Source of the DNA: an uncultured Candidatus Saccharibacteria bacterium
GTDB lineage: Bacteria; Patescibacteriota; Minisyncoccia; Phycocordibacterales; UBA2100
Assembly (NCBI GenBank): GCA_964349145.1
Contig: CAYGFN010000001.1
Span: 8,683 to 36,742, forward strand
DNA: 28,060 nucleotides
Reading direction: 5' to 3'
Shown piece by piece: positions 1,987-26,993 of this stretch; the stretch's first letter is position 1; every line of letters begins with the position of its first letter. The translations under genes and the position numbers were made by a program. The notes under the pieces were generated by a model. It had not been told where the DNA came from. It did not search any database and worked only from the letters and a program-made list of their open reading frames with translations.

Positions 1987-2054
1987 TATACCCCGTGAGA
2001 TATGTAACTACTAATTTCCCTAGGAAGAACGACTGGATTATCTCATGGGGTATA
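1987..2054 (+). repeat. Inverted-repeat element, family A copy 1 (36-nt interior)
   Basis: TATACCCCGTGAGATA (1987-2002) ... TATCTCATGGGGTATA (2039-2054), between the divergent SET gene and hisS. Confidence 0.9.
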
Positions 2055-2067
2055 GCATAATGCTGCC

Positions 2068-3327
2068 ATGTCCGAGCGAAAGAAAATATCCACCGAGAGC
2101 TACAAAGGGGTGCGTGACTTCTACCCTGAGGATCAGTTCGTGCAGCGATACATGTTTGAGCATATGGAGCGCGTCTGCGAGCTGTATGGCTACGAGGAGT
2201 ACAATGCCTCCGTACTTGAGCCTGCCGAGCTTTACCGCGCCAAGTCCTCTGATGAAATCGTCAACGACCAGACGTACACCTTTACCGATCGTGGCGATCG
2301 CGAGGTGACACTCCGCCCCGAAATGACGCCGACCTTTGCACGCCTCGTCGCAGCAAAATCGCGAGAAATTCCGATGCCTGCGCGATGGTACTCCATACAA
2401 AATTTCTTTCGCTACGAACGCCCACAACGAGGACGCGTGCGTGAATTCTGGCAGCTCAATGCGGACATCGTCGGAGCATCCGGCGTCGAAGCAGATGCAG
2501 AGGTGATTTCCATGGCACACGCGATTATGCGCAGCCTCGGAGCAGAAGAGCGTGATTTCGAGATTCGGGTCTCGGACCGCCGCATACTGGACTCGCTCTT
2601 TGAAGAAGTGAGTGTCGCGGAGGGAGACCGCGCCGAGGTCATGCGCCTCCTCGACCGACGAGAGAAAATTGATAATTTCGCTTCGCAACTTGAAGAGCTG
2701 GTCGGCAGCGAGAAATCCGGTGCACTCGTGAACAAAATTGATACCATCACATCGTCTGCATACCTTGAGGAACTTCGGATAATGCTCGAGCAGCTCGGCG
2801 TCCGGAATATGATTGTAGATACAAAAATTACGCGCGGATTTGACTACTACACGGGTATGGTATTCGAAGTATTTGATACCACGCCGGAAAATCGTCGCTC
2901 CATGTTTGGCGGGGGCCGCTACGATGACCTGCTGGGCCTTTTTGGTGGCGAGAAAATCCCCGCCGTCGGATTCGCCATGGGAGACGTCACGGCGCGAGAT
3001 TTTCTCGAGACACACAATTTGCTGCCCGAGTACGCTCCCGCTACCGAATTGATGCTCTGCATCGTTGACGAGGATGCGACGAGCCACGCCATGCGGCTCG
3101 CGCAAGACCTGCGCCGCGAAGACGTGACCGTGGCGGTGAATTTTTCCGGCAAGAAAATCGGCGATCAGATACGTCAGGCGGACAAGATGAAAGTCCCCTT
3201 CGTCATCGCAATCGGCGGCAAAGAGCGTGACAGCGGACGCTACACGATAAAAAATCTCTCCTCCGGGCAAGAAATGACCTTGCCGGCGGATCGCATTTCA
3301 GAGCACTTGTTTTCATCCCTCGGATAG
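2068..3327 (+). CDS. hisS: Histidine--tRNA ligase
   Basis: YKGVRDFYP, LRPEMTP, FRYERPQRGRVREFWQ, RGFDYYTG and GGGRYD motifs, plus a C-terminal anticodon-binding domain. Confidence 0.97.
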   Translation: MSERKKISTESYKGVRDFYPEDQFVQRYMFEHMERVCELYGYEEYNASVLEPAELYRAKSSDEIVNDQTYTFTDRGDREVTLRPEMTPTFARLVAAKSREIPMPARWYSIQNFFRYERPQRGRVREFWQLNADIVGASGVEADAEVISMAHAIMRSLGAEERDFEIRVSDRRILDSLFEEVSVAEGDRAEVMRLLDRREKIDNFASQLEELVGSEKSGALVNKIDTITSSAYLEELRIMLEQLGVRNMIVDTKITRGFDYYTGMVFEVFDTTPENRRSMFGGGRYDDLLGLFGGEKIPAVGFAMGDVTARDFLETHNLLPEYAPATELMLCIVDEDATSHAMRLAQDLRREDVTVAVNFSGKKIGDQIRQADKMKVPFVIAIGGKERDSGRYTIKNLSSGQEMTLPADRISEHLFSSLG

Positions 3328-3362
3328 GTTCTCCAAAAATGGTGCGTGATATACTCCCCTCG

Positions 3363-3932
3363 ATGCGCGTCGTGACATTTGATATTGAGACGGCCAACTG
3401 GCTCTCTGAAGGCTCCGGCATGTCGGATTTGAACATCGCAATCGCGTGTATCCACGACTCCGAGACCGATTCCTACTCGAGCTATCTCGAATCCGAGCTC
3501 CCGCAGCTCTGGCCCATCCTCGAGCGCACCGACATGCTCGTCGGCTACAATTCGAATCATTTCGACATCCCGCTCCTTAATAAATACTACCCCGGTGATC
3601 TCACCAAAATCAAAAGCCTCGACCTCCTCCTCGAGGTCAAAAACGTGCTGGGAAGGAGCCTGCGCCTTGATGCTATTGCCGAAGGCACGCTCGGCACCAA
3701 AAAGACTGGGAGCGGCGCACAGTCGCTCCAGTGGTGGCGCGCTGGCGAAATTGATAAAGTCCGGCAGTACTGCATCAAGGATGTGGAAATCACCAGGCGG
3801 ATTTTTGACTACGCGATGGAAAAAGGCGGCATCACATACAAAGAACTCGGCCGCTCACACGAGGTAAAGCTCGATACTTCGAACTGGCTCACCCCCGCAA
3901 ACAAGGGAATGACTTTTTCCCTCGGTTTCTAA
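3363..3932 (+). CDS. RNase H-like / DEDD exonuclease-fold protein (YprB/RNase_H_2-like)
   Basis: VTFDIET, LVGYNSNHFDIP, YCIKDVEIT motifs; TATACT 7 nt before ATG 3363. Confidence 0.8.
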   Translation: MRVVTFDIETANWLSEGSGMSDLNIAIACIHDSETDSYSSYLESELPQLWPILERTDMLVGYNSNHFDIPLLNKYYPGDLTKIKSLDLLLEVKNVLGRSLRLDAIAEGTLGTKKTGSGAQSLQWWRAGEIDKVRQYCIKDVEITRRIFDYAMEKGGITYKELGRSHEVKLDTSNWLTPANKGMTFSLGF

Positions 3933-3943
3933 ATCTAAATCGG

Positions 3944-4016
3944 TGCCTGGGATCAGATTTGCACTGATGACCCTTCCCTCTTCAGGGGAATGCTCTACTA
4001 ACTGAGCTACCCAGGC
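3944..4016 (-). tRNA. tRNA-Phe(GAA), CCA not encoded
   Basis: 73-nt cloverleaf GCCTGGG/CCCAGGC; anticodon arm TTCCC-CTGAAGA-GGGAA; atypical A18, G55, G37. Confidence 0.92.
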
Positions 4017-4108
4017 AAGTGAGGGAAAATGGGAAGGCTTGCCTTCACATTTTACCCGAGCGCCGCCTAGACACGAATGTACCCAGGCGAACGTCGACAA
4101 TATACCAT

Positions 4109-4417
4109 TTATTGAGCAGTGCTAGAAGCCGAAGGTGCGCCCTGCATGGTGTCCTTAAATCGCGAAAGTATCTGCATCCACTCGGCAAATTGCCCTTCGA
4201 GCTCCGTCTTCTTCCCCGACGCGCTGGTAACCGTCGTCTCGATTTGCTGGACAATTGGAGCGAGATACGTGAAGTACAACCAAATCGGGACGCCAAGTGC
4301 GAGTACGTACAAGAAAAGTCGCAACATGCCGCCCCAAAAAGCGTGCCGCTTCAGCGAATGCAGCATCGCATTGTTCTCCTTGGTGAGCCGGTAGATTTCC
4401 TTCAGCTGCGGATCCAT
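4109..4417 (-). CDS. Hypothetical single-TM protein
   Basis: Open frame with one TM segment (FLYVLALGVPIWLYF); TAGAAT 7 nt before ATG 4417. Confidence 0.7.
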   Translation of the reverse strand: MDPQLKEIYRLTKENNAMLHSLKRHAFWGGMLRLFLYVLALGVPIWLYFTYLAPIVQQIETTVTSASGKKTELEGQFAEWMQILSRFKDTMQGAPSASSTAQ

Positions 4418-4458
4418 GCCCGTCATTCTAACATTCACGTGCTACAGTATTTCCGTCC

Positions 4459-4530
4459 GCCCCCATAGCTCAATGGATAGAGCAGTCCCGTCCTAAGGGA
4501 GAGATGTGAGTTCGATTCTTGCTGGGGGCA
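4459..4530 (+). tRNA. tRNA-Arg(CCT)
   Basis: GCCCCCA/TGGGGGC acceptor stem, A20, anticodon loop GT-CCT-AA, TTCGA T-loop. Confidence 0.9.
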
Positions 4531-4767
4531 CTAGAGACCAAGCAATTGCTTGAGACGCTCCTCGTCGAAGCCGACGATGAGCTCGTTGTCGACCGTGATG
4601 ACAGGCACGCCCATCTGGCCGCTCCTTTGAATCATCTCCTGACGCTTTGCAAGATCGGACCCCACATTATGCTCCGTGTACGGCACATGATTGTCCGTAA
4701 AGAAATCTTTTGCAGCATGACAGAAGTGGCATGTCGGGGTTGAATAGATAGTGACGGTGTGTGCCAT
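4531..4767 (-). CDS. Glutaredoxin / NrdH-like redoxin
   Basis: YSTPTCHFCH, GQMGVPVI and IVGFD motifs; 78 aa from MAHTV. The ORF-track extension runs through tRNA-Gly and is spurious. Confidence 0.9.
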   Translation of the reverse strand: MAHTVTIYSTPTCHFCHAAKDFFTDNHVPYTEHNVGSDLAKRQEMIQRSGQMGVPVITVDNELIVGFDEERLKQLLGL

Positions 4768-4839
4768 AGCGTGTGTGCAAATGAATAAGGATTCGCAGTA
4801 TACCATTGCGCAGAATTCACCGACAAGGGGATATCTCGG

Positions 4840-4910
4840 TGCGGGTACCGGGAATCGAACCCGGGTCTCAACCTTGGGAAGGTCGCATTCTGCCACTAAA
4901 CCATACCCGC
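4840..4910 (-). tRNA. tRNA-Gly(CCC)
   Basis: GCGGGTA/TACCCGC acceptor stem, CGACC-TTCCCAA-GGTTG anticodon arm, GGTTCGATTCC T-arm; discriminator A. Confidence 0.93.
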
Positions 4911-4962
4911 TTACGGCATTAATCTACCACGAAGCCTGAATCTTGCAGCGAGCGGAGTGAGT

Positions 4963-5053
4963 GCGAGTATGTGGCGCGGAATCTCCCGCGGGCGAAGAGC
5001 CGAGGATTAAGGCTTTTCAGTGGGAAAAGCCGGGTTCCGCGCCGCATACTCGC
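4963..5053 (+). repeat. Structured repeat, family B copy 1
   Basis: 21-bp stem (4963-4983/5033-5053, two G-T pairs) enclosing a 49-nt core that is 47/49 identical to 12321-12369. Confidence 0.9.
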
Positions 5054-5066
5054 CGAACGAAGCCCC

Positions 5067-5441
5067 TTACCAGAAGATAAAGAATCGCTGCACCTTCTCG
5101 AGGAATGTGGGTGGCACTTCAACAGGCTCGGGGGTGGGTGGTTCCACGATGACAATAAGCCCCTCACCCTGCTTCCCGACGTCGTATTGTTCCCGAAGCG
5201 CCTCTTCCTGCCCGCGATCTGTTTTGAGCTTCTCGGTGTCACGACGAAGACGTTCGGCCTGCTCCTCAAGCTCGGATTGCTCGACTTCTGCATACTCACG
5301 AAGCGTCCGCGAGTCACGCTCCTTGCCGTAGACCTGCCACACGCCGATAGCCGCTCCGAGGACAACGAGCACTAGGACGAACGTCGCCGTACGCCTCAAA
5401 AAAAGGCGTACCGGATCATGCGTATTCCGGAAATTTGCCAT
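5067..5441 (-). CDS. Septum formation initiator family protein (FtsB/DivIC-like)
   Basis: N-terminal TM, coiled coil, then EEALREQYDVGKQGEGLIVIVE; TAGGAT 6 nt before the ATG. Confidence 0.75.
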   Translation of the reverse strand: MANFRNTHDPVRLFLRRTATFVLVLVVLGAAIGVWQVYGKERDSRTLREYAEVEQSELEEQAERLRRDTEKLKTDRGQEEALREQYDVGKQGEGLIVIVEPPTPEPVEVPPTFLEKVQRFFIFW

Positions 5442-5469
5442 TTCCGTATCCTATCATTACAATGCACCT

Positions 5470-5598
5470 ATGAGTTTTTTGTTTCATAAACGCACCAAGA
5501 AAGTCATCAACTTCTTTGCGGGTGGCATCGCCATCATCCTCATTTTGAGCATGGTGATTTTCTTCGCCCCGGGGATTCTGGAGCTTCTCTTGGCGTAG
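5470..5598 (+). CDS. 42-aa single-TM small protein, missing from the ORF track
   Basis: MSFLFHKRTKKVINFFAGGIAIILILSMVIFFAPGILELLLA*; TACAAT 6 nt before the ATG; fills the gap between the ftsB-like gene and lepA. Confidence 0.7.
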   Translation: MSFLFHKRTKKVINFFAGGIAIILILSMVIFFAPGILELLLA

Positions 5599-5607
5599 TA
5601 GCCACTC

Positions 5608-7392
5608 CTAAGTTTCTCGGATTACTTTGAGAAAGACGTCATTTGGGATGTCGACTTTTCCACGCGCGAGCATCTTTTTCTTGCCGCGCTTCTGCTTGTC
5701 GAGCAATTTATTCTTGCGCGATACGTCTCCGCCATAGAGATAGCCTGTCACGTCCTTGCGCATGGCGGATTTTCTTCGCGACGCAATAATCTTGCCATCC
5801 GCTTTTGCTTGAATCTTGAGCTCAAAAAGCTGTCTCGGAAGTAGCTTCTCGAGCTTCTCCACCATCGCTTCCGCCTCGTGCGCGACTCGTCGCTTGGATA
5901 CAATGCGCGCAAATGCAGGTACCGGATCTTCTGCGACAAGCACGTCGAGCCGCATCACATCGGCGTCCTTCATACCGGTGAGCGTGTACGAGAGTGATGC
6001 AAAGCCGCTCGAAATACTCTTGAGTTTGTCAAAAAAGCCGCGCATGAGTTCACGCAGAGGCATTTCCGCGTGCACCGCGGTCTTGCCATCAGGTAATGAT
6101 TCACTCTCTCCCACCACTGCTTCATGGTCGTACAGTATCTGTGCGATACCTCCCAAATATGCAGGCGGCGACATCACTACCACATCGGCCCAGAGCTCTT
6201 CGATTCGTTTTGCTTGCCCCGAATCGGGAAATCGTGCAGGCGCGTAGACATCCTCAATCTCCCCGCTTGGGTGAGTGATTCGATAGACTGTCGTCGGCAT
6301 GGTCACAACAAGCTCGAGATTAAATTCGCGCTTGAGCCGCTCGATGACGATTTCCAAATGGAGCATACCGAGGAATCCGCATCGAAATCCCTTGCCCATA
6401 ATTCCCGATGATTCTTCTTCGTACGAAAGTGATGAGTCCGAAAGGCGCAGTCGATCGAGCGATTGCCGCAATAGCGGGAGATCGTCCTGAGATTCCGGGT
6501 ACACGCTTGCCCAGATGACCGGAGTGGGTTGCTGGTATCCCGGCAATTCCGGTGCCGCGTTGCGCACCGAGACGACCGTATCGCCTACCGAGGCAATGCC
6601 CGGGCGCTTTACGCCCGTCACGATGTAGCCAATTTCTCCCTGCGCAAGTTCTTCGGCGGGTGTCTCATCCGGCATCATGCGCCCCACCTCGACTGCAATG
6701 AAATCCGCATTCGCGGCCGCAAAACGGAGCGCATCCCCTTTTTTAATCGAGCCACCAAAGACGCGCGTATACACAATGACTCCTCGATGGTCCGAATACC
6801 CGAAATCGAAAATGAGCGCCTGCGTTGCGGCTCCCGACGACGTCGGGGGTGGTACGCGCCGGACCACTTCATCGAGCAGATGCTCGACACCCTGTCCCGT
6901 TTTCCCTGATACCGGCAATACATCGGCCTCATCGCATCCGAGAAGGAGGGCGAGCTCGCTCGTGATGTCTGCCACTCGAGAAGCGGGAACGTCAATTTTG
7001 GACACCGCTGGCACGATGACGAGCCCCAATTCTTTCGCGACCGAGAGGACCGAGAGTGTCTGTGCTTCGATACCCTGAGTCGAGTCTACGAGCAAGACGA
7101 CGCCCTCGACCGCCTTGAGGGCGCGCGAGACTTCGTACGAGAAATCTACGTGCCCCGGCGTATCGATGAGATTAATGATGTAATCCGCTCCTCCCACCTT
7201 CCAGCTCATGCGCACGGGCTGCATTTTGATGGTGATACCTCGCTCGCGCTCGAGATCCATGCGATCAAGGACCTGCTCCTGCATGTTTCGCTTCTCAATG
7301 GTGTGAGTCAGCTCGAGCATGCGGTCGGCAAGAGTACTTTTACCATGGTCGATATGAGCAATAATGCTGAAATTTCTGATATTGGAAGACAT
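5608..7392 (-). CDS. lepA: Elongation factor 4 (LepA)
   Basis: MSSNIRNFSIIAHIDHGKSTLADR, ERERGITIK, LIDTPGHVDF, GFRCGFLGMLH, KLLDKQKRGKKKM. True start is 7392, not 7452. Confidence 0.97.
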   Translation of the reverse strand: MSSNIRNFSIIAHIDHGKSTLADRMLELTHTIEKRNMQEQVLDRMDLERERGITIKMQPVRMSWKVGGADYIINLIDTPGHVDFSYEVSRALKAVEGVVLLVDSTQGIEAQTLSVLSVAKELGLVIVPAVSKIDVPASRVADITSELALLLGCDEADVLPVSGKTGQGVEHLLDEVVRRVPPPTSSGAATQALIFDFGYSDHRGVIVYTRVFGGSIKKGDALRFAAANADFIAVEVGRMMPDETPAEELAQGEIGYIVTGVKRPGIASVGDTVVSVRNAAPELPGYQQPTPVIWASVYPESQDDLPLLRQSLDRLRLSDSSLSYEEESSGIMGKGFRCGFLGMLHLEIVIERLKREFNLELVVTMPTTVYRITHPSGEIEDVYAPARFPDSGQAKRIEELWADVVVMSPPAYLGGIAQILYDHEAVVGESESLPDGKTAVHAEMPLRELMRGFFDKLKSISSGFASLSYTLTGMKDADVMRLDVLVAEDPVPAFARIVSKRRVAHEAEAMVEKLEKLLPRQLFELKIQAKADGKIIASRRKSAMRKDVTGYLYGGDVSRKNKLLDKQKRGKKKMLARGKVDIPNDVFLKVIRET

Positions 7393-7393
7393 A

Positions 7394-7522
7394 TCATTTA
7401 CCCGCCTGCCCCGTTGGAAGCGTAGCTTTCCAACCGGGGTGATCAACCCCATTAGAGACGCGAAGCGCTCTAATGGGGCACGTGTGAGCGATTATGGAAA
7501 AGTTTCTGATGTTCTGAGACAT
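7394..7522 (-). pseudogene. 42-codon upstream ORF: duplicated lepA N-terminus with two in-frame 36-nt palindromic inserts
   Basis: MSQNIRNFSIIAH[TCPIRALRVSNG]VDH[PGWKATLPTGQA]GK*; TATAGT 8 nt before the ATG; the TGA ends 1 nt before the lepA ATG. Confidence 0.85.
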
Positions 7523-7532
7523 GGAGAGACAC

Positions 7533-7600
7533 TATACCCCGTGAGATAAAAGAACTCTAATTACCTGAACTGCGCGGGACGATGTATCTCATGGGGTATA
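7533..7600 (+). repeat. Inverted-repeat element, family A copy 2 (36-nt interior)
   Basis: TATACCCCGTGAGATA (7533-7548) ... TATCTCATGGGGTATA (7585-7600). Confidence 0.9.
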
Positions 7601-7613
7601 CCCCACTCATCGC

Positions 7614-9323
7614 CTACGCGCTCGTCGTCGTGCCGGGACCTTCTGCAGACGTCACAATCGTGACTTCTGGCAATGTCTTTGCACTCCAGATGCGCGCATG
7701 GAGAGACGCATACGTCTCGTTGAATTCACGACTTCCCAGTAAACGATAGGTGAATCCTGCGACCAATATGCCGCATACCCCGGCTGCAAATCCCTGCACA
7801 AAAATCGAAAGTGCGGTCGATGAGACGACAAACGAGCTTGCAAGTCCCAAAAAGATGTACGCGGCGAGGCCTGCGGCGCATGCTGCAAGCACACTGTCGA
7901 GCAGCGCCGACGCTATCTGGCGAAGCAAGCCCCTGAAGTGCCATTCGAAATGCAGGACAAGCACCACCGCACCCACGATAATTGCAATCGCATACGCACA
8001 CGCGAGGATAAGCACGTTGCTTCCCGAAATATCATCCACGCGCAAGAGCCGCTCTACGAAGCCAAGTATTCGCTGGTCAGTCGTTACGAACAACCCTACC
8101 GCTGCTACCCCGAGCGTGGTGAGAGCCACTCCTGCTGAAACCACGAGGGGTACAAGTGTTTTGCCCGCCGCATAGTATCCTCGCATCAGAAGGAGCGTAA
8201 GACCTTGTGCGGCGAGCGCGCTTGCAATCAGTGCAAACGCCGCAGCGGTAAGGCGAGTGTCGTTCCAACTGAATGCACCCGTCCCGAGAATCACGCGGAC
8301 AATGTGCGCACGGAGGACGAGGATGAGTGCGCTCGCCGGAATAGACCAGAAAAATACATAGCGCGCGGCGATAGCGACATGACGGACGAATTCCTCTGTC
8401 TCTCCTCGAGAGAGCGCACGCGCAAGCGTCGGGAATGCCGCGACCGAGTATGATGCCCCAATAACCGCAAGCGGCACTGCGGCAAGATTGAAGGCAAACA
8501 TAAAGACCGCAATCGATCCTGTGGCAAGCAATCCCGCGAATACCGTAAGTCCGAGGAAGGTCAATTGATTCATGGAGAGCGCAAGTGCTCGCGGTACCGA
8601 TATTGCTGCCGTCGTGAGGAGTGCGCGCGGGTCACGCAGCGTTGGCATTCGGCGAAAAAATCCATCGCCAATGAGAGACGGCACCTGAATCGCCGCATGG
8701 AGGGTGGCACCAATCACGACGCCCCATCCGAGACCCGCTATCCCCCACAGCGGATACAAAACAAGGACGCCGAAAATGATGCCCGCATTGTAGAGAAGCG
8801 GCGAGATAGCATAGAGCGCATAGCGCTCTCGTACCTGTGTCACGCCGGCGAGAATGTTTGAGAGGCCGAGAAGAATCGGCTGCAGGAGAAGAATACGAGT
8901 GATGAGAGTGAGATGTTCGCCTTGTCCCGCCGCGATGAGGACAGGAAAGAGCCTCTCAAGAATATGCGGAGCAAGAAGCGCAGCGCCCGCAGACACACAA
9001 ACGGCAAACGCGGAGAATCCTACGACAATCGTGTCAATGTAATCTTTTTGCTCGTCTCGATTTCTCCTGGTCAGTTCCGGAATAAGAATGTACACGGACA
9101 CGAGAGCACCCGTGGCCACGAAGATAAGGTCAGGTATGCGAAACCCCGCATAATAGACATCCAAGAGTGTTGATGCCCCAAACGCGTCAGCAAACATTCT
9201 GTCGCGAACGAGTGCGAGGAGCGACGAGAGGAGTGCCGCAACCGCCAAAATGGAGGCGGCAGCGTGCAAACCCCGTACCTCCGACGAAAGATAGCGAAGT
9301 GCGTTTCGAGCAAAGAGCGCCAT
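7614..9323 (-). CDS. murJ: Lipid II flippase MurJ/MviN
   Basis: SSLLALVRDRMFADAFGAS, DVYYAGFRIPDLIF, PLAVIGASYSVAAFPTLA, LMRGYYA; about 14 TM segments. Confidence 0.9.
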   Translation of the reverse strand: MALFARNALRYLSSEVRGLHAAASILAVAALLSSLLALVRDRMFADAFGASTLLDVYYAGFRIPDLIFVATGALVSVYILIPELTRRNRDEQKDYIDTIVVGFSAFAVCVSAGAALLAPHILERLFPVLIAAGQGEHLTLITRILLLQPILLGLSNILAGVTQVRERYALYAISPLLYNAGIIFGVLVLYPLWGIAGLGWGVVIGATLHAAIQVPSLIGDGFFRRMPTLRDPRALLTTAAISVPRALALSMNQLTFLGLTVFAGLLATGSIAVFMFAFNLAAVPLAVIGASYSVAAFPTLARALSRGETEEFVRHVAIAARYVFFWSIPASALILVLRAHIVRVILGTGAFSWNDTRLTAAAFALIASALAAQGLTLLLMRGYYAAGKTLVPLVVSAGVALTTLGVAAVGLFVTTDQRILGFVERLLRVDDISGSNVLILACAYAIAIIVGAVVLVLHFEWHFRGLLRQIASALLDSVLAACAAGLAAYIFLGLASSFVVSSTALSIFVQGFAAGVCGILVAGFTYRLLGSREFNETYASLHARIWSAKTLPEVTIVTSAEGPGTTTSA

Positions 9324-9324
9324 A

Positions 9325-11732: not shown

Positions 11733-11738
11733 GAAAGC

Positions 11739-12170
11739 CGCGTCAGACAGCCGCCCCGTGAGATAAGGCGTTCGAGATATTCTAGTTAAGTCGGGCATCA
11801 CTCACAGTCCCGCTTAGCATGGAAATCGGAATGTGTTATCTCATGGGGAGGAAAGTCCGGACACGCACCCGCCCTTTCTTAGAAAGAGCGGGTAGCAAGG
11901 TAGCGGGTAACACTCGTCGTGCGAGAGCATAGGGTTGCGAACAGAGACGCCAAGGCCGAGAGGCTGCGGGCTCCGCAAGGAGTAGCTCTGGTGGAAACAT
12001 CAGAGGTGCAACGGCAAAAAACCTACCTGCGTGCAAGACCGTGTTCGTCGGGAACCAATTGGACCTGACGAAAGAGTCGCTCGAGGTGTGTGGCAACACA
12101 CATCCCAGATACATGGCTGTCATAAGTGTCGCCGCAAGGCTCCCTTAACAGAATCCGGCTTATCGATGCG
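11739..12170 (+). ncRNA. rnpB: RNase P RNA with extended P3
   Basis: GAGGAAAGTCC (11848-) and ACAGAATCCGGCTTA P4 halves; P2 GACAGCC/GGCTGTC; P1 CGCGTC/GATGCG; GCAAG and CCCAGATACATG conserved segments. Confidence 0.93.
11754..11848 (+). repeat. Inverted-repeat element, family A copy 3 (71-nt interior), inside rnpB
   Basis: CCCCGTGAGATA (11754-11765) ... TATCTCATGGGG (11837-11848); lacks the outer TATA. Confidence 0.9.
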
Positions 12171-12177
12171 ACGAACG

Positions 12178-17075: not shown

Positions 17076-17096
17076 GCCTCCATCCTACCGCAAGAG

Positions 17097-17248: not shown

Positions 17249-17358
17249 AGTGACCGCCGAGTGACATGTAGAGGCACTTAGCTCGTAACTGTCCTATTAG
17301 TATCTCACGTATAGGCAACGCGAATGAGACGTGTGGGGATACCACTATCTCTCGTCAG

Positions 17359-18753
17359 CTAGGGCAAATCGATTTGAGGCTCGCTCTCGGCTCGCATCGG
17401 CACATCAAATATTGAATGCGGTACGTCCTCTCCCGCGAGATGTCGCGAAATTTTGCGGCCTCCGTATACCGAGGGCAGAATGCCGACGCCGTTGCATCCG
17501 AGATTGTAGAGTAAAACCGGATTTTGCGGCTCGCTTCCGATGAGGCGCATGCCATTTTTTGTATACCCCATCAGTCCATGCCACGTGAATACGTAGTCGA
17601 TCTTTCTGTTTGGCTCCGCATCGTAGACGTGATGTACAAATGAATCGATTTTGTCCGCCATTTCATCAGGGTAGTCGCTCTCAAACGAGTACGGCGCCGT
17701 CTCTTCTATATCAATATCCGGCCCGCCGATTGAAATCAGATTGTGCTCGGCGCCCTTCTCATACTCGTATGGCCGGCGTGTTAGATAGAAGTACGAATTA
17801 TCCGCACCCGCCGAGGGGTCAGCATAATAGCTAATTGCTATCGGTAATTTGTTCATGCGCTCGAGATAGCCCGACATGTAGCCGATCTTCCCTGAGAGCA
17901 GGTGATGGTACTTGGCATCGATGTCGAGTCCCGTGTCATTGAGAATATGTATGCTCTCGAACCCGTTCGTGCACAAAACGATACGACCTGCGGTCACGAC
18001 GTGTGTGTCCGCATCGACGAGCGCATGGTCACTTTTGAGCACAATCTTATGGACCGGCGTGTGTTCGTAGAGTGCAAATCGATTCTGATATTTCTCCTGC
18101 AAGAAGGTCACCACTTCCTGACAAAAAAGTGCGCTGTTGACGCAGCCCTTCTGCGAAGAAACCACCGCAATATAATCAGTCACGTGAGTCTCCAACATGC
18201 TGAGCACATCGCTATGCGGGATGACATCGTAAAGTCCCGCGTACTCCGCCGGAATATCGCTTGATATGTTTGCATGATCCGATATGTGCACGACAGCAAA
18301 CCGAACACCCGCCTCGCGTTTTGCATGATTGTTTTTCAAATGCCAGATAACTTGCTCCAAGCTGGTAAGCCCGCCGTGGCCAATAAAGCGCGAGAATGGA
18401 ATATCAAGGCCGGCATCCGAATACATTTCGTCGAGCAATTCCCACGCATCATCGATGGCTTTTTGGCCAGCCGCCGCGAGCTCGGCACCAAACTCCTCGA
18501 CCATGCTCGCAAATCCTCGCTCAAAATAGCTCACCACTTGTCCGGCATTATGACCCGTTGCGCCGTGAGCCAATCGATGGCGCTCGACGAGCGCAACGCT
18601 TTTATCGGTATATTTGAGAGTGAAATATGCGGTCGCTGTGCCCGCGATTCCCGCACCTATGATGGCGACGTCTACCGCTGTGTCGCGTGAGAGCCGCTCC
18701 GCTTCGCGCGTATTATCCAGCTGATGCAGCCACGGAGAATGATTCTTTCGCAT
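17359..18753 (-). CDS. FAD-dependent oxidoreductase, DAO/PuuB-like
   Basis: IIGAGIAG Rossmann motif, HGATGHNAG, TWHGLMGYT, LGCNGVG; TATAAT 7 nt before ATG 18753. Confidence 0.85.
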   Translation of the reverse strand: MRKNHSPWLHQLDNTREAERLSRDTAVDVAIIGAGIAGTATAYFTLKYTDKSVALVERHRLAHGATGHNAGQVVSYFERGFASMVEEFGAELAAAGQKAIDDAWELLDEMYSDAGLDIPFSRFIGHGGLTSLEQVIWHLKNNHAKREAGVRFAVVHISDHANISSDIPAEYAGLYDVIPHSDVLSMLETHVTDYIAVVSSQKGCVNSALFCQEVVTFLQEKYQNRFALYEHTPVHKIVLKSDHALVDADTHVVTAGRIVLCTNGFESIHILNDTGLDIDAKYHHLLSGKIGYMSGYLERMNKLPIAISYYADPSAGADNSYFYLTRRPYEYEKGAEHNLISIGGPDIDIEETAPYSFESDYPDEMADKIDSFVHHVYDAEPNRKIDYVFTWHGLMGYTKNGMRLIGSEPQNPVLLYNLGCNGVGILPSVYGGRKISRHLAGEDVPHSIFDVPMRAESEPQIDLP

Positions 18754-18762
18754 CGGGCAGAT

Positions 18763-18864
18763 TATACCCCGTAAGATATCTATTCGAGAACATTGATCTA
18801 TCAAGATCAAACTGCTTTGCGCGAGTGTGGTACTTGGCGCGGCGTCCTTATCTCATGGGGTATA
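18763..18864 (+). repeat. Inverted-repeat element, family A copy 4 (70-nt interior)
   Basis: TATACCCCGTAAGATA (18763-18778) ... TATCTCATGGGGTATA (18849-18864). Confidence 0.88.
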
Positions 18865-18875
18865 CCGCAGCCACG

Positions 18876-21800: not shown

Positions 21801-23213
21801 AAGCACATTTCGATCTTGAAGCGCCACGAACGGATCGAATGCATGAAAGGAGTCCCCGGGGGATTCGAATGCAGGTTCTACACCAACACCAATCTTTGCG
21901 TACATGTCGCCACTGAATACGACGCCCTCCCACCGATGTCCGGAATTGATGTAATCCCAGTCAGTGTTCACGCCGGCAGATCCCAGCACGTAACTCGGCG
22001 TCGTAAAGCCATACCGCACATTACTCCTCGTTGTCTCAAGAACATCCCAATGGTCGCCATTTTCGTTTGCATTTCCCGGTCCTGGCCATCGTTTAGCATA
22101 TGCGTATGTTCCGCGAGTGGCGGTATCCGCGGCCAATTTCACGACCGCGGCTGGCGGATAGTAGTTGCTCGTGGTTCGAGTGATATTGCCAAGCGGCGCG
22201 AATGTGCGCCCCGGGGAATTGAACATGAGGTCATACGAGCGGTCACTGAAGGAGTAGAAGCGATCATTGTTCTTAGTACGCGCCTTCGGGCCGCCGCGTG
22301 TCGTGTACAAGGTCTCCTCGGCCATATTGGCGTAGGCCAAGTCGAGAAACATCTCTGCCTTCTTGCGCAGCACCGGATCCTCTGCGAAATCGCGGATATT
22401 TGAATACGCGCCGATTGTTTCGTCTTCGTAAACAGGAGACGCTGCTTCGACGAAGAGACCGCGCTTCCCACGCTCGTCAATCCACGTAGAGATGTAATTG
22501 CGCCGTGCTGTGTATTGCTGCGCGAGCGTAGATCCGTCTGCGTAGCGTTGGGATGCGTAGGTCGGATTGTCTTTCAAAAATTGTGCCGCTAGAAAGCACC
22601 CTGTTGTTTTCGCTGCATGATGGTTTTCCGATCCGTATGATTCCCAGACGTTTTTATTCGCGGCCGCGAGCGTGCAAAATTGCTTCGCGACTGCCCACAT
22701 ACCCTGCTCCATTTTGGCTTGCGCTTGTGGAGTGATCTTGCCTGGCATATAGGGGCTTCCGCTCTTGAAGAGAGCATAGAGGCGCATGTAATCGACGGAG
22801 AACAGTCCAAAACCAAAATCCTCATGCGCGGGCCACACGTAGTGGCTCGAGGCAAAATAGCGATTGACGTCAGATGTACGCTGATTGAGCATAAAAGCGG
22901 CTATCCCGAAGCTTGTCCAACTAATGGGCCTGAGCGCCGTATCGGAGGTACCGGCGTCAGAACATTGGGCATCGCCGCATTTCAAGTCGCTGCCATTATC
23001 CACCATGACGAGGAGCGATTGGCGAAGGCGCTCTAGATAATCGCTCGGGAGATTCTGCATATAAGCCGGTGCCCAGGCGGCGCCGACAACAGCTGCAGAT
23101 TGAGAGTTCAACGGCACACTCGGACGAGTAGCCGTGAACATATGGAGGGCCCATAGTATCCCGCCGAGCAGCAGCAGGGACACAATGGCTTGCCGAGTGG
23201 TGAGTTTGGGCAT
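18876..23213 (-). CDS. Large exported/surface protein with an N-terminal helical enzyme-like domain and bacterial Ig-like repeats
   Basis: N-terminal TM/signal; four PTVxITxP...ASDN...VxF Ig-like repeats; one chitobiase/Fn3-like segment (VSPGTY...IHYTFDGTAP); Thr/Ala-rich. Confidence 0.8.
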   Translation of the reverse strand: MPKLTTRQAIVSLLLLGGILWALHMFTATRPSVPLNSQSAAVVGAAWAPAYMQNLPSDYLERLRQSLLVMVDNGSDLKCGDAQCSDAGTSDTALRPISWTSFGIAAFMLNQRTSDVNRYFASSHYVWPAHEDFGFGLFSVDYMRLYALFKSGSPYMPGKITPQAQAKMEQGMWAVAKQFCTLAAANKNVWESYGSENHHAAKTTGCFLAAQFLKDNPTYASQRYADGSTLAQQYTARRNYISTWIDERGKRGLFVEAASPVYEDETIGAYSNIRDFAEDPVLRKKAEMFLDLAYANMAEETLYTTRGGPKARTKNNDRFYSFSDRSYDLMFNSPGRTFAPLGNITRTTSNYYPPAAVVKLAADTATRGTYAYAKRWPGPGNANENGDHWDVLETTRSNVRYGFTTPSYVLGSAGVNTDWDYINSGHRWEGVVFSGDMYAKIGVGVEPAFESPGDSFHAFDPFVALQDRNVLITQVWAPAPPNSPLHLPVFLKLYFSPTLDEVWEEPKWIFVKEGNAYAAVRVVSGGYEWTPSAGWTHAEGSPVSNLRFITLRADSPVIIVVNEAKDYGNDFEKFKRAVRAQPLSNDNGVLTFSTLTFYGTAQLGKINGTTLNLSPALGYNSPFIRSAWNSGLICIKKGSDTLALDFRSSTNPSKTTSAYAACSYPAGVGADQPIIFPVPVGVDGASPTVSFSAPAPNATVSGLVTLAATASDNVAVTAVEFKNGSVTMGTDTSLPYSYPWNTTLVPNGARTLNVVARDAAGNRATSTRTVTVANTASVDTTLPTVAITTPTTGATVSGSAVTLSAMASDNRAIASVQFLVDGKNVGAPDTAQPYTVQWNSSAVANGSHSITATARDTSGNARTSVTTVVQVSNQVATPLPVPVVSVSPGTYDRPMRITLSAPGAGSIHYTFDGTAPTCTTGLVYTAPITITETVTLKAIACPSATPVSASKSFVAAVYESVRSMLASVFAVVTGGGVQPSPVSTFRYVITPDSILPSISITAPAVNAVVSGNAVVLSADASDNVDVSRVIFQIDGANVGSRDRVAPYQIVWNSLSIPNGTHTLSATVSDVNGNIRTASSRAIRVSNPATTTPTCALIAPATATASTPITLSWTSTSAPTSATLKQGATLLSGAIALPTGTRTLTPPATAGTYTYTLSVTNAAGTGTCSKKVIVTTVPAHNNHTPIGNIGQPNQDNQNCSISGWACDLDNLGTDLEIELYEGSTKLGQVKADVIRNNNSHDIALACGAAVNADGTFTKGFTPTKGFRVIFTGLTKGTHWISGYAKNINSAGMQSGTRGTLPRMSGYTGPVVCDPAIMTGTLTNAKTINIPPTPASTDTTLPTVSITAPAADAAVSGVVTLSASASDNIGLRSVQFRIDGVVVGPVFPSGPYVVEWGSTSVADGAHTVSATAIDTNGNTKTSAAVTIHVNNADTVIWTSEQQGVGSQ

Positions 23214-23303
23214 GAAAAAAGGATGAACATCATCCGCTACTCCATGACTGTAACATTGAACTCCTCGTCCAAATCTTCGAATGTGGACAGGTACACCTTA
23301 TTT

Positions 23304-23391
23304 TGGCGGAGGCGGAGAGATTCGAACTCTCGGTGCCTTGCGACACTCGTCCTTTCCAGGGACGTGCACTAGACCACTATGCGACGCCTCC
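23304..23391 (-). tRNA. tRNA-Ser(GGA), CCA encoded
   Basis: 88-nt class II cloverleaf GGAGGCG/CGCCTCC, anticodon loop CT-GGA-AA, long variable arm GTGTC-GCAA-GGCAC. Confidence 0.93.
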
Positions 23392-23634
23392 TCCTGAACC
23401 AAACTCTCGTTTGATTTGCTCTCTCTTATAACCTTTCTTATACTCGCGCTCAACACGAACTGATTCAAGCTCGGAACTCACTTCGATACTCTTGAGCAAA
23501 TCGAATGGTCGACGAGACTTCGTAGACGGCACGGCGCCGCGATTGTGCTCAGAGATTCGCCTTTCCAAATCATTTGTACGACCTACGTACAAATTGCCAT
23601 CCTTTTGACTCCGCAGTATGTAAACGAAAAACAT
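23377..23634 (-). CDS. Small stand-alone GIY-YIG nuclease
   Basis: FVYILRS...LYVGRTNDLERRISEHNRG...STKSRRPF; the last codons overlap the first 15 nt of tRNA-Ser. Confidence 0.9.
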   Translation of the reverse strand: MFFVYILRSQKDGNLYVGRTNDLERRISEHNRGAVPSTKSRRPFDLLKSIEVSSELESVRVEREYKKGYKREQIKREFGSGGGVA

Positions 23635-23642
23635 ACAGCTTT

Positions 23643-23689
23643 ACTAGACCCCTGCCTGCCTGCAGGCAGGACTATGCGACGCCTCCTCC
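23643..23689 (-). mobile_element. Duplicated 5' fragment of tRNA-Ser interrupted by a 20-nt palindrome-containing insert
   Basis: Exact copy of 23368-23394 (27 nt) with CCTGCCTGCCTGCAGGCAGG (23651-23670) inserted. Confidence 0.85.
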
Positions 23690-23694
23690 CACGC

Positions 23695-24210
23695 CTACTG
23701 CGTGGTCCCGCCATCGGCGGTGACGTGCTCAGAATTTATAGCACGTGCACGGCGACGGCGCTCGCGCGCATCACGGAAGTGAGCGCGCTGTTCGATAAGG
23801 CGCGCGAGCATGCGCCTCTCGAGCTCTGCTGCTTTCTGAGAAGCAATCCATCCGAGTGTCGCGAGCACCACGTTGATGGCGAGGACTCCGAAGAACGCGA
23901 TATAAAATTGCATCGTCCACGCAGGGGGAATCCCGATCGCGTGCGTAAGTAGAAAACTCCCCATCCCGACGACAACATCCATAAAGCGATTCTGTGGCGT
24001 CTCATGGATTTTCACCATCGCCTCCCACATTTCGTATGCCACAAAGCAGAGGAAGGCGATTACGGCAGTCGGGATAAACGGAAACCCGAAAATTTGAAAA
24101 CCGATTGCAACCGAGACGCCGGAGAGGAAGTGCACGACGCTCCAGAGATCAAGCCACTTCCCTTCGCGCCAGATGTCTGTCCGCACAAATCCGTTACGCG
24201 GACTATCCAT
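23695..24210 (-). CDS. Hypothetical membrane protein
   Basis: About 4 TM segments; WSVVHFLSG and YEMWE motifs; starts 1 nt after the htpX stop. Confidence 0.75.
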   Translation of the reverse strand: MDSPRNGFVRTDIWREGKWLDLWSVVHFLSGVSVAIGFQIFGFPFIPTAVIAFLCFVAYEMWEAMVKIHETPQNRFMDVVVGMGSFLLTHAIGIPPAWTMQFYIAFFGVLAINVVLATLGWIASQKAAELERRMLARLIEQRAHFRDARERRRRARAINSEHVTADGGTTQ

Positions 24211-24211
24211 A

Positions 24212-25105
24212 TTAGATGTGCATGCCCTGCAGCGCTGCGATGCGCTCTTCCACGGGTGGGTGCGTCGCGAAAAGTTTGCGCATGAGCGAGCCCTTGTTGC
24301 TCGGACCAAATGGATTCGAGATGTAGAGGTGCGCCGTGGCGCTCGTCGCGTGCTGCACGGGCGCTCCGTGGCTCGCAATCTTGTTCAGCGCGTTCGCCAA
24401 TCCCTCCGGGTAGCGCGTAAGAAGAGCGCCCGAGGCGTCGGCGAGGAATTCTCGCTTTCTTGAAATCGCGAGGTGTATGAGCTGCGCTGCTATCGGAGCG
24501 AGGATGAGACCAATGAATCCGACCACGAGGATAATGGGATTGACGTTGCGGTCTCGCCCCTCGCCGCCAAAAAGGCTCACGCGGAAAAGCATGTCTGCGA
24601 TGACCGAAAGGAATCCCGCGAGCACCACCGCGACCGTCATGACGAGAATATCGCGATTGCCGATGTGCGAGAGCTCGTGCGCGATGACCCCTTCGAGCTC
24701 TGCTCGGTCGAGCCTCGCGAGGAGGCCAGTCGTCACGGCAATCACCGAATGCTCGGGGTTTCTGCCTGTCGCAAATGCGTTTGGTGCGTCATCTTGGATG
24801 ATGTATACGCGCGGTTTCGGGAGCCCTGCCGTAATCGCAAGATTCTCAACGATGCGATGCAGTTCGAGATACTGCGTGGGATCTGCTTCTCGTGCGTGAG
24901 CTGATGAGAGTGCGATTCTATCCGAAAACCAAAACGCCGTGACGTTCATGCCAATGGAGAATGCGACCGCTACCCAGAGATACACGGGAGAGCCCATGTA
25001 GAGCGACACGAACCATCCGACCGCAATCACCACGAGGAAGAACCCCGTCATAAGTATCCAGGTCTTGGTTATGTTCTTGCCTTGCTGTGTGTAGAGTGAT
25101 GCCAT
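24212..25105 (-). CDS. htpX: Zinc metalloprotease HtpX (M48)
   Basis: APNAFATGRNP, GVIAHELSHI, ISRKREFLADASGA, ATHPPVEERI. Confidence 0.95.
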   Translation of the reverse strand: MASLYTQQGKNITKTWILMTGFFLVVIAVGWFVSLYMGSPVYLWVAVAFSIGMNVTAFWFSDRIALSSAHAREADPTQYLELHRIVENLAITAGLPKPRVYIIQDDAPNAFATGRNPEHSVIAVTTGLLARLDRAELEGVIAHELSHIGNRDILVMTVAVVLAGFLSVIADMLFRVSLFGGEGRDRNVNPIILVVGFIGLILAPIAAQLIHLAISRKREFLADASGALLTRYPEGLANALNKIASHGAPVQHATSATAHLYISNPFGPSNKGSLMRKLFATHPPVEERIAALQGMHI

Positions 25106-25114
25106 GGGGTTCAG

Positions 25115-25215
25115 TATACCCCGTGAGATATTCCGTCGGAATACCTCAAAATTCGCGTATTCTCGTCACGTTTCATTCTAGTTGCAACGCTATACTTTAT
25201 ATCTCATGGGGTATA
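25115..25215 (+). repeat. Inverted-repeat element, family A copy 5 (69-nt interior)
   Basis: TATACCCCGTGAGATA (25115-25130) ... TATCTCATGGGGTATA (25200-25215). Confidence 0.9.
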
Positions 25216-25225
25216 CAAAACTTCG

Positions 25226-25564
25226 CTATTTTCCGTAGCCGCCGAATCCTACCCACCCCGTGTCGAACACTGCATCGACTCTATATGTGCCGCGAGTAAA
25301 TACCGTGCCATTTTCGAGCAGATGCGTGACTTCGAGAATTCTTATAGTGGCGACCGGTTCTGAGAGTTGTTCATTCCCCTCGGTCTGAAGCAGCGGGGTC
25401 TTGCCGCCGATATTGTAGAGGCGCTGGTCACTCTTTAAAAAGGGGTACGCCTTTCCCACTTCCAGCTTTTCGGGAATGCACTCCGCTTCTTTGCGGCGAC
25501 CAGCCTTGAATTCCGCTTGGGAGCGGAGCGCAAGGTCGGGATTGAATTCAACTTTTATTCCCAT
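25226..25564 (-). CDS. Hypothetical protein
   Basis: Frame from MGIKVEFNPDLALR, starting 1 nt after the upstream stop; the ORF-track extension overlaps the upstream gene. Confidence 0.7.
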   Translation of the reverse strand: MGIKVEFNPDLALRSQAEFKAGRRKEAECIPEKLEVGKAYPFLKSDQRLYNIGGKTPLLQTEGNEQLSEPVATIRILEVTHLLENGTVFTRGTYRVDAVFDTGWVGFGGYGK

Positions 25565-25565
25565 A

Positions 25566-26321
25566 TTAGTGCCAGTCGGCCATCTTTTGTTCGACTTCGG
25601 AGGCTTTAAACGAAGCGTCTCGATTCCAATATTTCGGATCATTTCTTTGATGATATGCAAGTCGATTGTTAGCTTGCGCGATAAAGATGCGACGACGCTG
25701 CGTATCACATTCAACGGCAGTATCACCACTGCCTGTCCCTTTCGGTCCGGCTATCACGACTGGATCAACGCCAAGCACTTCTTGAGACACTCTTGCTACC
25801 AGCTTCACTGAAGCAACATAAGTTTCCGGGGACGTATCGTATCCGCCAAAAATGACTACGTCGATGGTGCCGGATTCGGAACGATCTTTTAGCGCGCGCA
25901 GAGTCACTCTCAAGTCATGCTCATACGCTTCTGATTGACTTCTGACCGCTAACTTGTCACCGATATTGGTTTCGCGCGCGTGCGCATCTTGATGAGTTAG
26001 AATGGAAATATTTTTATTGCCTTCGGTTCCGACTGCAAACAAGCCGATACAGTCGTAGTATTCGCTTGAGAACTTGTCACTTTCGTCTAGTTCAGATATC
26101 ACGTAAGACTCTTTGCCGCCATGTTTTTGCCCCAATCTCTTCCACTCTTTTTCGTTACCGTAATAGTCGACAGGCGTGGGTCTCGCCATAAGATCGAGAT
26201 TCTCTTCCTCAACTGGGAAGTATTTCTCATCACTTATGCACGCGGTAATGAGCCCGCGATTGAGCGACTCTTGTGACTGCAGTGCGATTTCTTGTGAACG
26301 ACGCTCGGCTCGTTCGCGCAT
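25566..26321 (-). CDS. Hypothetical protein, possible CheD-like Cys-His deamidase fold
   Basis: YDCIGLFAVG...ISILTHQD...VVIFGG pattern; starts 3 nt after the lemA stop. Confidence 0.55.
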   Translation of the reverse strand: MRERAERRSQEIALQSQESLNRGLITACISDEKYFPVEEENLDLMARPTPVDYYGNEKEWKRLGQKHGGKESYVISELDESDKFSSEYYDCIGLFAVGTEGNKNISILTHQDAHARETNIGDKLAVRSQSEAYEHDLRVTLRALKDRSESGTIDVVIFGGYDTSPETYVASVKLVARVSQEVLGVDPVVIAGPKGTGSGDTAVECDTQRRRIFIAQANNRLAYHQRNDPKYWNRDASFKASEVEQKMADWH

Positions 26322-26324
26322 AGG

Positions 26325-26882
26325 CTAGAAACTGACTGCGACAGGATTCTTGGCAGCCTGTTCACCTTCTGCGAGCTCGAAGAATTCGCTCTCTTTAAAT
26401 CCGAAACCCTTCGCGATGAGATTCGATGGGAAAGATTGCACCTTCGTGTTCAATTCCTGCACCACTGAATTGTAGAAGCGGCGGGCAGCCTGAATCTTAT
26501 TTTCTGTGTCCGAGAGTTCACGCTGCAACTCTACGAAGCTCGCGTTGGCTTTGAGATCCGGATACGCTTCCGATACAGCAAAGAGTGATTTGAGTGCTCC
26601 GGCAAGCATGTTTTCTGCCTGTGTGTGCTCCCCCACTGTCTGTGCACCCATCGCTGCAGTGCGCGCATCGGTCACCTTCTGAAGCGTGCCTGCTTCATGC
26701 GCGGCATATCCCTTGACCGTCTCTACGAGATTCGGGATGAGGTCGAAACGACGCTTAAACTGGACTTCGATATCCGACCATGCCTCTTTGACACGGTTAA
26801 CGAGCGTGATGAAACGGTTGTAGGCGCCGATTACGTAGAGAACGAGGACAGCTGCTACTCCTAAAAGAATGTATGTAGTCAT
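26325..26882 (-). CDS. lemA: LemA family protein
   Basis: AWSDIEVQFKRRFDLIPNLVETVKGYAAHE, EAYPDLKAN, ENKIQAARRFYN. Confidence 0.95.
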   Translation of the reverse strand: MTTYILLGVAAVLVLYVIGAYNRFITLVNRVKEAWSDIEVQFKRRFDLIPNLVETVKGYAAHEAGTLQKVTDARTAAMGAQTVGEHTQAENMLAGALKSLFAVSEAYPDLKANASFVELQRELSDTENKIQAARRFYNSVVQELNTKVQSFPSNLIAKGFGFKESEFFELAEGEQAAKNPVAVSF

Positions 26883-26892
26883 ATGCGAGAAG

Positions 26893-26993
26893 TATACCCC
26901 GTGAGATATAAAAATCTACCTTCACAATCCTTTCATGTAGCATGTCAAATACCGACCGATGTCAGCAATCGAACGCATGTCTCATGGGGATAC
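26893..26993 (+). repeat. Inverted-repeat element, family A copy 6 (69-nt interior, degenerate right arm)
   Basis: TATACCCCGTGAGATA (26893-26908) ... TGTCTCATGGGGATAC (26978-26993). Confidence 0.85.

Follow-up and report, generated by a model that had tools for sequence, protein, structure and literature searches.

Ssn nucleases, which are single-domain GIY-YIG enzymes, make strand-specific cuts in single-stranded DNA beside hairpin repeats of their own (Chenal et al. 2025, Nat Commun, PMC11893778). These NTS/SRM hairpin repeats stand on both sides of the nuclease genes, and the authors note an insertion-sequence-like NTS-ssnA-NTS layout (PMC11893778). This pairing of nuclease and hairpin repeat is the closest published system to the one described here, which lies in a 28,060-nt stretch of DNA (the window, positions 8,683 to 36,742 of contig CAYGFN010000001.1, assembly GCA_964349145.1) from an uncultured Candidatus Saccharibacteria bacterium. 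The window holds six copies of a short inverted-repeat element, family A. Family A copies are probably gene-less, hairpin-ended mobile elements resembling MITEs (miniature transposable elements with inverted repeats), with mobility linked to a small GIY-YIG nuclease and with one of the window copies, copy 3, forming helix P3 of RNase P RNA. The genome to which the window belongs (G000) comprises 831 kb in 100 contigs and is 91% complete. It was compared with a 5-contig relative (G020), with its closest relative (G005) and with other genomes of the genus; below, C-numbers are contigs within a genome and L-numbers are further contigs from other Kaiserbacteria genomes.

The arm 12-mers CCCCGTGAGATA and TATCTCATGGGG match the window 13 times with at most two mismatches, where 1.7 matches are expected and none of 100 shuffles reached 13. 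Six paired elements were recovered, as a sequence-only reading of the window had claimed, with interiors of exactly the lengths it gave (36, 36, 71, 70, 69 and 69 nt) and with the arm asymmetry it described, left G and right T on the + strand, in all six. This pairing is a G-T/G-U wobble on the + strand and a C-A mismatch on the opposite strand. A genome-wide scan found about 45 paired elements in G000, and unpaired arms are almost absent. Over about 90 copies from G000 and G020 the arms are near-invariant inverted repeats of 12-13 nt.

The length classes seen in the window hold genome-wide, where the histogram of interior lengths is discrete rather than continuous. Interiors cluster at 34-39 and 66-75 nt in G000, while those of G020 measure 69-78 nt (about 40 copies) or 35-36 nt (three copies), with a few hairpins that have 6-14-nt loops. 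About 80 other Kaiserbacteria contigs have interiors of 6-12, 33-38 and 68-77 nt and hardly any between these classes. The pooled means are 35.0 +/- 1.0 and 71.1 +/- 2.5 nt. The mean of the long class is unequal between genomes (69.6 vs 72.0 nt, p 1e-4), which argues against a rigid universal ruler.

The interiors had been described as impossible to align, and in pairwise comparison their mutual sequence relation is indeed nearly absent. Among the G000 and G020 interiors 1 of 2278 long pairs was clearly related and 3 of 171 short pairs were; in a larger set at most 13 of 3240 pairs (at most 0.4%) were related, some of them being one locus fetched twice. With near-invariant arms, unrelated interiors and discrete lengths, the earlier view that family A is not an ordinary MITE or repetitive extragenic palindromic (REP) family with a conserved interior was right. 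Neither positional conservation nor central arm remnants were found in the interiors, whose GC content is 45% compared with 55% for the genome, making them richer in AT. No RNA structure exceeded shuffled controls (mean z ~0), the sole exception being the copy in RNase P RNA, and structured RNA was rejected on this basis as an account of the interiors. Small open reading frames (ORFs) and a mod-3 length rule gave no signal and were also rejected. In two genomes the interiors had no matches to the rest of the genome, and capture of interiors from the own genome was rejected accordingly.

The 4-nt sequences that flank the elements are target-site duplications, a point missed in the earlier reading. 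Of 90 elements, 62 have perfect 4-nt direct repeats as flanks, whereas shuffling the partners predicts 31 +/- 2.5. The flanks are mostly TATA. Of the 45 pairs with a flank other than TATA on one or both sides, 17 are perfect direct repeats without palindromic symmetry, including TCAA, TGAA, TACA, TAGA, TTGA, TGTA and TAAA, and four more have a 5-nt TCATA repeat that belongs to a variant-arm subfamily. In the window TATA stands on both sides of five of the six elements, and the start coordinates first reported for those five included the flanking TATA. In-situ decay of the interiors is excluded because the target duplications are intact. Tandem copies have one TATA in common, as expected if an arm end plus TATA mimics the target, and show a geometry of 28-bp palindrome and 35-nt spacer. 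At one locus a 36+36 tandem in G000 corresponds to a single 72-nt interior in G020; together with the 2:1 ratio of the classes and the many short tandems, this suggests that long copies may be fused tandems.

The target itself, which also went unrecognised before, is mostly the -10 hexamer of leaderless genes. The flank logo gives a reconstructed target consensus of RG-TATA-CY, and the gene-side hexamer that adjoins the arm is TATACT (29 cases), TATAAT (7) or TATAGT (4). The start codon most often lies 12-14 nt from the arm (43 of 91 cases). Since the hexamer is duplicated on insertion, the gene retains a TATAnT 6-8 nt before its ATG. The leaderless design dominates gene starts in G000, where TAnAnT lies 5-8 nt before the start codon in 247 genes and only 62-84 genes have it at other spacings; a family A arm occupies 25 of these 247 gene starts. 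The lemA genes of relatives likewise have TGnTATAAT 5-7 nt ahead of the ATG. The empty sites already have TATAnT, and the idea that the arms act only as promoters by bringing in the -10 box was rejected for that reason.

Filled and empty sites were compared at two loci, and both show a discrete insertion. What was inserted is the whole unit of arms plus interior, and the capture of cargo that the sequence-only reading had envisaged finds no support in these sites. The first is the lemA promoter. Copy 6 (26893-26992, + strand) consists of TATA, the element at 26897-26989 with a 69-nt interior and right arm TGTCTCATGGGG, and a right-hand flank of ATA from which one duplication base has been lost; it lies directly upstream of lemA (26325-26882, minus strand). 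In G005 the conserved upstream flank is followed by TATACT, 8 nt and ATG, an intact empty site, and in G000, which shares these flanks, copy 6 lies within the TATA. The site is also empty in 28 further species, so that 29 of 30 species have lemA without any element. In G014 an independent mini element with an 8-nt loop sits in the same TATA of lemA.

The second site is polymorphic within the population. Copy 2 (7533-7600, + strand) is made up of TATA, the element at 7537-7596 with a 36-nt interior, and TATA. Strain-level comparison used four metagenome runs (X1-X4) from one study, all holding G000, plus one contig from the European Nucleotide Archive (ENA). A 625-nt contig of run X3, free of mismatches, passes straight from 7532 to 7597 and lacks exactly copy 2 and one TATA (64 nt), while the filled form is present in contigs of X1, X2 and X4 and in the ENA contig. 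The empty alleles of copy 2 and lemA look like precise excision or a never-occupied site. Hypermutable loops were rejected as the source of interior diversity, as copies 1, 5 and 6 are unchanged in strain-level contigs that have up to 24 single-nucleotide differences outside the elements. A protein scan for metagenome contigs of the same species gave a top match only 77% identical, which is useless at the strain level, and in an intergenic alignment of G000 with G020, made in search of empty sites, divergence was too high.

Sites also turn over between genomes. Only eight of 38 assessable G000 sites have an element beside the orthologous gene in G020, about the share predicted by occupancy alone, and vertical inheritance of sites was rejected on this count. 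At sites common to both genomes the size classes often differ (36 vs 71, 67 vs 36, and the tandem noted above). The motif occurs in 17 of 24 genomes of the genus, with copies ranging from 0 to ~38. Outside the genus, a single match with one mismatch was found among 16 other sampled families of the order. The same 16-mer is present in contigs titled Candidatus Kaiserbacteria, Paceibacterota or Parcubacteria, which are groups of the candidate phyla radiation (CPR); the Kaiserbacteria are ultra-small.

The fixed orientation claimed for family A did not survive the wider survey, since both orientations occur genome-wide and even on the window's own contig (C1:3650). With orientation random across the genome, the six-for-six agreement in the window is local chance. 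The arm that faces the adjacent gene start is the G-arm in 24 cases and the T-arm in 25, with both arms doing so in 15 and neither in 13. When orientation was set against replichore by means of GC skew in G020, the bias was weak (26 vs 14) and the window tends the opposite way. An orientation rule based on replichore or gene direction was rejected by these GC-skew and gene-start counts.

No mobilising enzyme had been identified in the window, and none lies between family A arms there; what this missed is a gene between the same arms elsewhere in the genome. At G000:C5:645-919, family A arms with TATA flanks enclose 251 nt that encode an 80-amino-acid protein at C5:660-899, its start codon 8 nt past one arm and its stop abutting the other. 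The protein is a GIY-YIG domain (PF01541, E 1e-13, residues 1-66 of 80). The same cassette in the same arms is found at G020:C1:9740-10016 (67% amino acid identity), in rnpB of G009, and in L149 and L168, making at least five genomes in total. First codon positions differ 23 times between the G000 and G020 genes, second positions 14 times and third positions 48 times, and the catalytic residues (Tyr, Tyr-x-Gly, Arg, His and Glu) are kept; judged by these codon-position differences and kept residues, the nuclease is under purifying selection. Its best solved relative in the PDB is UPF0213 protein BH0048 (E 0.0015), and a search of NCBIfam gave only a sub-threshold match to a group I intron endonuclease.

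Nearly all other small GIY-YIG genes of the genus have an inverted repeat of 12-16 nt of their own and 4-nt direct flanks, and gene-less pairs of these arm types are found too, once more including a ~70-nt class. Both searches covered 25 genomes. Five of these have no small GIY-YIG gene, and their family A arms number 0-1; small GIY-YIG genes are present in every one of the ten that have at least five family A arms, although related genomes are not independent in this comparison. The possibility that interiors are deletion remnants of the nuclease ORF was rejected by nhmmer and tblastn searches against the cassette, in which only the rnpB copy of G020 qualifies.

Two further kinds of small GIY-YIG element were observed. 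Type B elements have arms TCCCGTTAGAGAT and a TGAA duplication (G000:C18:12727-13005, L205, L209, L210, L212 and L228) and sit exactly on the ATGAA start codons of alaS-, xth- and tatD-like genes; their nuclease ORF starts at the ATG that was captured and continues across the arm, ending in a TGA that overlaps with the rebuilt ATG of the host gene. In the window, a small PF01541-type GIY-YIG gene at 23407-23634 (minus strand), 42% identical to the family A nuclease, directly adjoins tRNA-Ser (23304-23391), and a 19-nt copy of the 5' end of the tRNA stands on its far side (region 23304-23700). This gene is a different, tRNA-targeting cassette type.

Copy 3 (11754-11848, + strand) has a 71-nt interior and no TATA flanks, and is located in rnpB (~11739-12176). 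The Rfam model RF00010 (class A RNase P RNA) scores 83 bits at this locus, under the 100-bit gathering score, and its placement of P1/P2 within the copy 3 interior was rejected by comparison with 29 relatives. In these relatives P1 and P2 stand directly before P3, with GAGGAAAGTCC directly after it, in the layout TATAAT..CTGCGTTAGGCAGYCGC-[short P3]-GAGGAAAGTCCGG. In the window, TATAAT lies at 11727-32, P1 (CGCGTC, 11739-44) pairs with 12165-70 and P2 (GACAGCC, 11746-52) pairs with 12115-21; P1 and P2 precede the left arm of copy 3, and GAGGAAAGTCC follows its right arm. In this arrangement copy 3 takes P3's place, and it is probably transcribed and acts as that helix of the RNA; folded by itself, its interior gives a long hairpin (-53.9 kcal/mol). 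An element in P3 is also present in G017, G020 and G009. The G009 copy is the nuclease cassette within P3, and that of G020 is an in-frame internal deletion of the nuclease ORF which keeps 7 N-terminal and 14 C-terminal codons.

Other inserts were observed in the same RNA. A second rnpB insert in the window (11868-11892) is a mini hairpin, CCCGCCCTTTC-TTA-GAAAGAGCGGG, whose arms also bracket another GIY-YIG gene at G000:C2:25673-25970. In rnpB of G041 and G045 (L013 and L014) P3 is replaced by a different insert of ~110 nt. P3 seems to be a general landing place in the genus.

The remaining copies of the window are all flanked by TATA on both sides. Copy 1 (1987-2054, + strand; element 1991-2050, 36-nt interior) lies in the promoter region between the divergent SET-domain and hisS genes. 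AGTATA at 1985-1990 is TATACT on the minus strand, with the start codon of the SET gene (CAT 1973-1975) 9 nt beyond, and strain-level contigs have the filled form with an element free of any difference. Copy 4 (18763-18864, + strand; element 18767-18860, 70-nt interior, left arm CCCCGTAAGATA) is positioned between the stop of a gene for a 1445-amino-acid Ig-domain protein and the start of an FAD oxidoreductase gene. Its minus strand reads TATAAT, 7 nt and then ATG (CAT 18751-18753), and four strain-level contigs have the filled form. Copy 5 (25115-25215, + strand; element 25119-25211, 69-nt interior) is directly upstream of an M48 peptidase gene (24212-25105, minus strand), again with TATACT, 7 nt and ATG on the minus strand, and is identical across strain-level contigs.

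Two arrangements near family A elements are recorded here as observations. Upstream of lepA, at window positions 7400-7525 (minus strand), a short ORF starting from 7522 repeats the N-terminus of lepA and contains two palindromes of ~32 nt, one of them with family B arms (CCCCATTAGAG..TCTCTAATGGGG); these palindromes resemble mini elements that were inserted in frame. A gene for a 240-amino-acid glycosyltransferase-like protein is bracketed, in two other Kaiserbacteria genomes (L158:738-1500 and L171:28-790), by a mini element on one side and an unpaired family A arm on the other, which may be a composite arrangement or chance.

The mechanism that we favour, with somewhat better than even confidence, is that the 80-residue Ssn-like nuclease recognises the arm hairpin and moves its own cassette together with the gene-less copies. 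Mobility would need only the arms, and the interior would be a spacer that evolves freely, or is exchanged, within mobile lengths of ~9, 35 and 71 nt. Movement would be mostly conservative with duplication rare, element lineages would be drawn from a very large population, and selection would act only on the arms and on a mobile length. Several points weigh against this account. The link to the enzyme is one of association, and G016, G021, G017 and G014 have many family A elements but no A-type nuclease gene. GIY-YIG enzymes act on DNA by hydrolysis and are not known to join it, which makes a 4-bp duplication hard to derive from their activity. All gene-less interiors but one are without homology to the nuclease cassette, unlike typical pairs of MITE and autonomous element, and the rnpB copies have no duplication. 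Simple copying and decay within one genome also does not fit so few related pairs and intact duplications.

A wider and more speculative proposal, which we regard as unlikely, joins these observations: family A and its sisters would be a transposon class run by an 80-residue, Ssn-like, hairpin-specific nuclease of single-stranded DNA, and would then be the smallest self-contained mobile element known. The -10 boxes and leaderless start codons would be targeted because they are melted in open promoter complexes, and the interiors of ~35 and 71 nt would report a physical ruler of the transposition complex (one or two HU-type bends, or fusion of tandem units) rather than ancestry.

Four other explanations were weighed against nuclease-linked mobility. 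The elements could be regulatory DNA selected by the host, the arm pairs being binding sites, promoter modules or RNA stem-loops and not selfish mobile DNA. The near-perfect conservation of arms against scrambled interiors, the position exactly at -10 boxes, an asymmetry compatible with G-U pairing and the one copy that would be a functional RNA helix all accord with such a role, but it appears improbable in view of the direct-repeat flanks and of presence and absence, within the population and between species, at promoters that are otherwise conserved. The 29 of 30 species whose lemA has no element, the lack of any orientation rule relative to the gene, interiors without RNA structure beyond shuffles, and a copy number of 0 to ~38 within one genus speak against it too. 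Single copies, such as that in P3 of rnpB, may nevertheless have been exapted. If the elements were an ordinary MITE family mobilised in trans by a DDE transposase, such as an IS1380- or piggyBac-like enzyme, they would have the inverted terminal repeats, 4-bp duplication and small size that are seen here. Enzymes of the IS1380 and piggyBac kind duplicate 4 bp at palindromes rich in AT, with termini that read CC(C), and the piggyBac ends, CCCTAGAAAGATA with TTAA flanks, resemble CCCCGTGAGATA with TATA. Profile searches of five high-copy genomes, however, gave no match to PF13701 (IS1380), PF01609 (IS4/IS5) or PF13358 (IS630); PF13843 (piggyBac) was unmatched as well, but it was unmatched in control genomes too and is uninformative. 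The integrase core (rve) was matched only in G021 and G009, not in G000, and no long element with family A arms encodes a transposase. These metagenome-assembled genomes are 82-96% complete, so the absence of a transposase remains unproven, and we consider a DDE enzyme improbable to a slightly greater degree than host regulation.

A ruler-type integrase that takes up foreign or random DNA in pieces of a set length and places them between constant ends, by a logic like that of CRISPR adaptation or casposons, is close to the cargo capture proposed in the sequence-only reading. Tight length classes with sequence-free interiors and the palindrome-spacer geometry of tandems lend it some appeal. It is very unlikely, given that no Cas1 (PF01867) was matched in the five genomes, that the repeats are inverted and not direct, that interiors match nothing else in two genomes, and that the long-class mean differs between genomes; related pairs at different loci, moreover, have the look of copying and divergence of whole units. 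Least probable of the four is movement as a REPIN-RAYT system, in which an IS200-like transposase of the tyrosine (HUH) kind mobilises REP doublets. Elements moved by IS200-type chemistry are strand-biased and lack a target duplication, and neither trait fits family A. Each of the five high-copy genomes has RAYT-like Y1 transposase genes (2-7 per genome), and REPINs likewise combine conserved arms with a looser spacer (PMC3116915). Every inspected Y1 gene, however, has a different hairpin of its own and never family A arms, and Y1 genes also occur in four of five genomes without family A. A search for TnpB found nothing above threshold in the five high-copy genomes, with one sub-threshold match in G009. 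After these profile searches and inspection of the Y1 flanks, the DDE, Cas1, TnpB and Y1 enzymes were rejected as partners of family A. The RAYT-like Y1 genes (225-275 codons; G000:C5:15838-16161, G000:C12:3159-3440 and several in G020), each with its own REP-like hairpin, are a separate repeat and enzyme system in the same tiny genomes.

If the nuclease moves the elements, transposition with target duplication would be feasible by a GIY-YIG hydrolase together with host repair. Transposition chemistry run by a GIY-YIG enzyme would lie outside the known transposase classes, in a unit of less than 300 bp. In a 0.8-Mb genome, family A elements occupy about one-tenth of the leaderless promoters as well as a site within RNase P RNA, and so shape gene starts in streamlined CPR genomes. 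They also confuse annotation, with rnpB falling under the Rfam gathering score here. Invariant arms around scrambled interiors of fixed length amount to a natural experiment on the minimal needs of a transposon. Ssn-type enzymes are of interest as tools for single-stranded DNA, and each arm family may mark a new specificity.

Our literature searches found no description of GIY-YIG inverted-repeat transposons, and family A has features in common with several known kinds of element. Like the MITEs Correia, RUP and ERIC, its copies are short, gene-less and intergenic, with terminal inverted repeats and target duplications, are often adjacent to promoters, and vary in number among relatives. Copies of these classical MITEs (Correia is from Neisseria) have a common interior and derive from a DDE insertion sequence, whereas in family A the interiors fall into length classes without being related, and a GIY-YIG nuclease gene is the only one found between the arms. 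With piggyBac and IS1380 it has in common the 4-bp duplication of an AT-rich palindrome, termini beginning CCC and an empty allele; it differs in that such a transposase was not found (the piggyBac search being uninformative) and in the size of its elements, 33-100 bp. The rnpB copies (copy 3, G009 and G020) recall the intervening sequence of Coxiella 23S rRNA, which is a stem-bounded insert at the helix tip of an essential RNA, sometimes with a small ORF (PMC4990558), although most family A copies are in promoters with target duplications and not in RNA genes. As in REPIN-RAYT systems, hairpin-forming inverted doublets have arms better conserved than the spacer, and a small nuclease or transposase gene is flanked by the same repeats (PMC3116915, PMC3337134). 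The enzyme here has a GIY-YIG and not an HUH tyrosine fold, REPINs are without target duplication, and the local RAYT-like genes carry other hairpins. The likeness to Ssn lies in a single-domain GIY-YIG gene of ~80-95 codons bracketed by hairpin repeats, in repeats dispersed in many intergenic copies, and in nuclease lineages that pair with different repeats (PMC11893778). In family A, by contrast, the arms are one long-range inverted repeat around gene or spacer and not separate hairpins, and there are 4-bp duplications, filled and empty sites, a -10-box target and gene-less derivatives with free interiors, which are not part of the Ssn description; Ssn has been interpreted as a modulator of transformation and not as a transposon (PMC11893778). 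The G/T asymmetry of the family A arms would suit an Ssn-like, strand-specific cleavage of single-stranded DNA.

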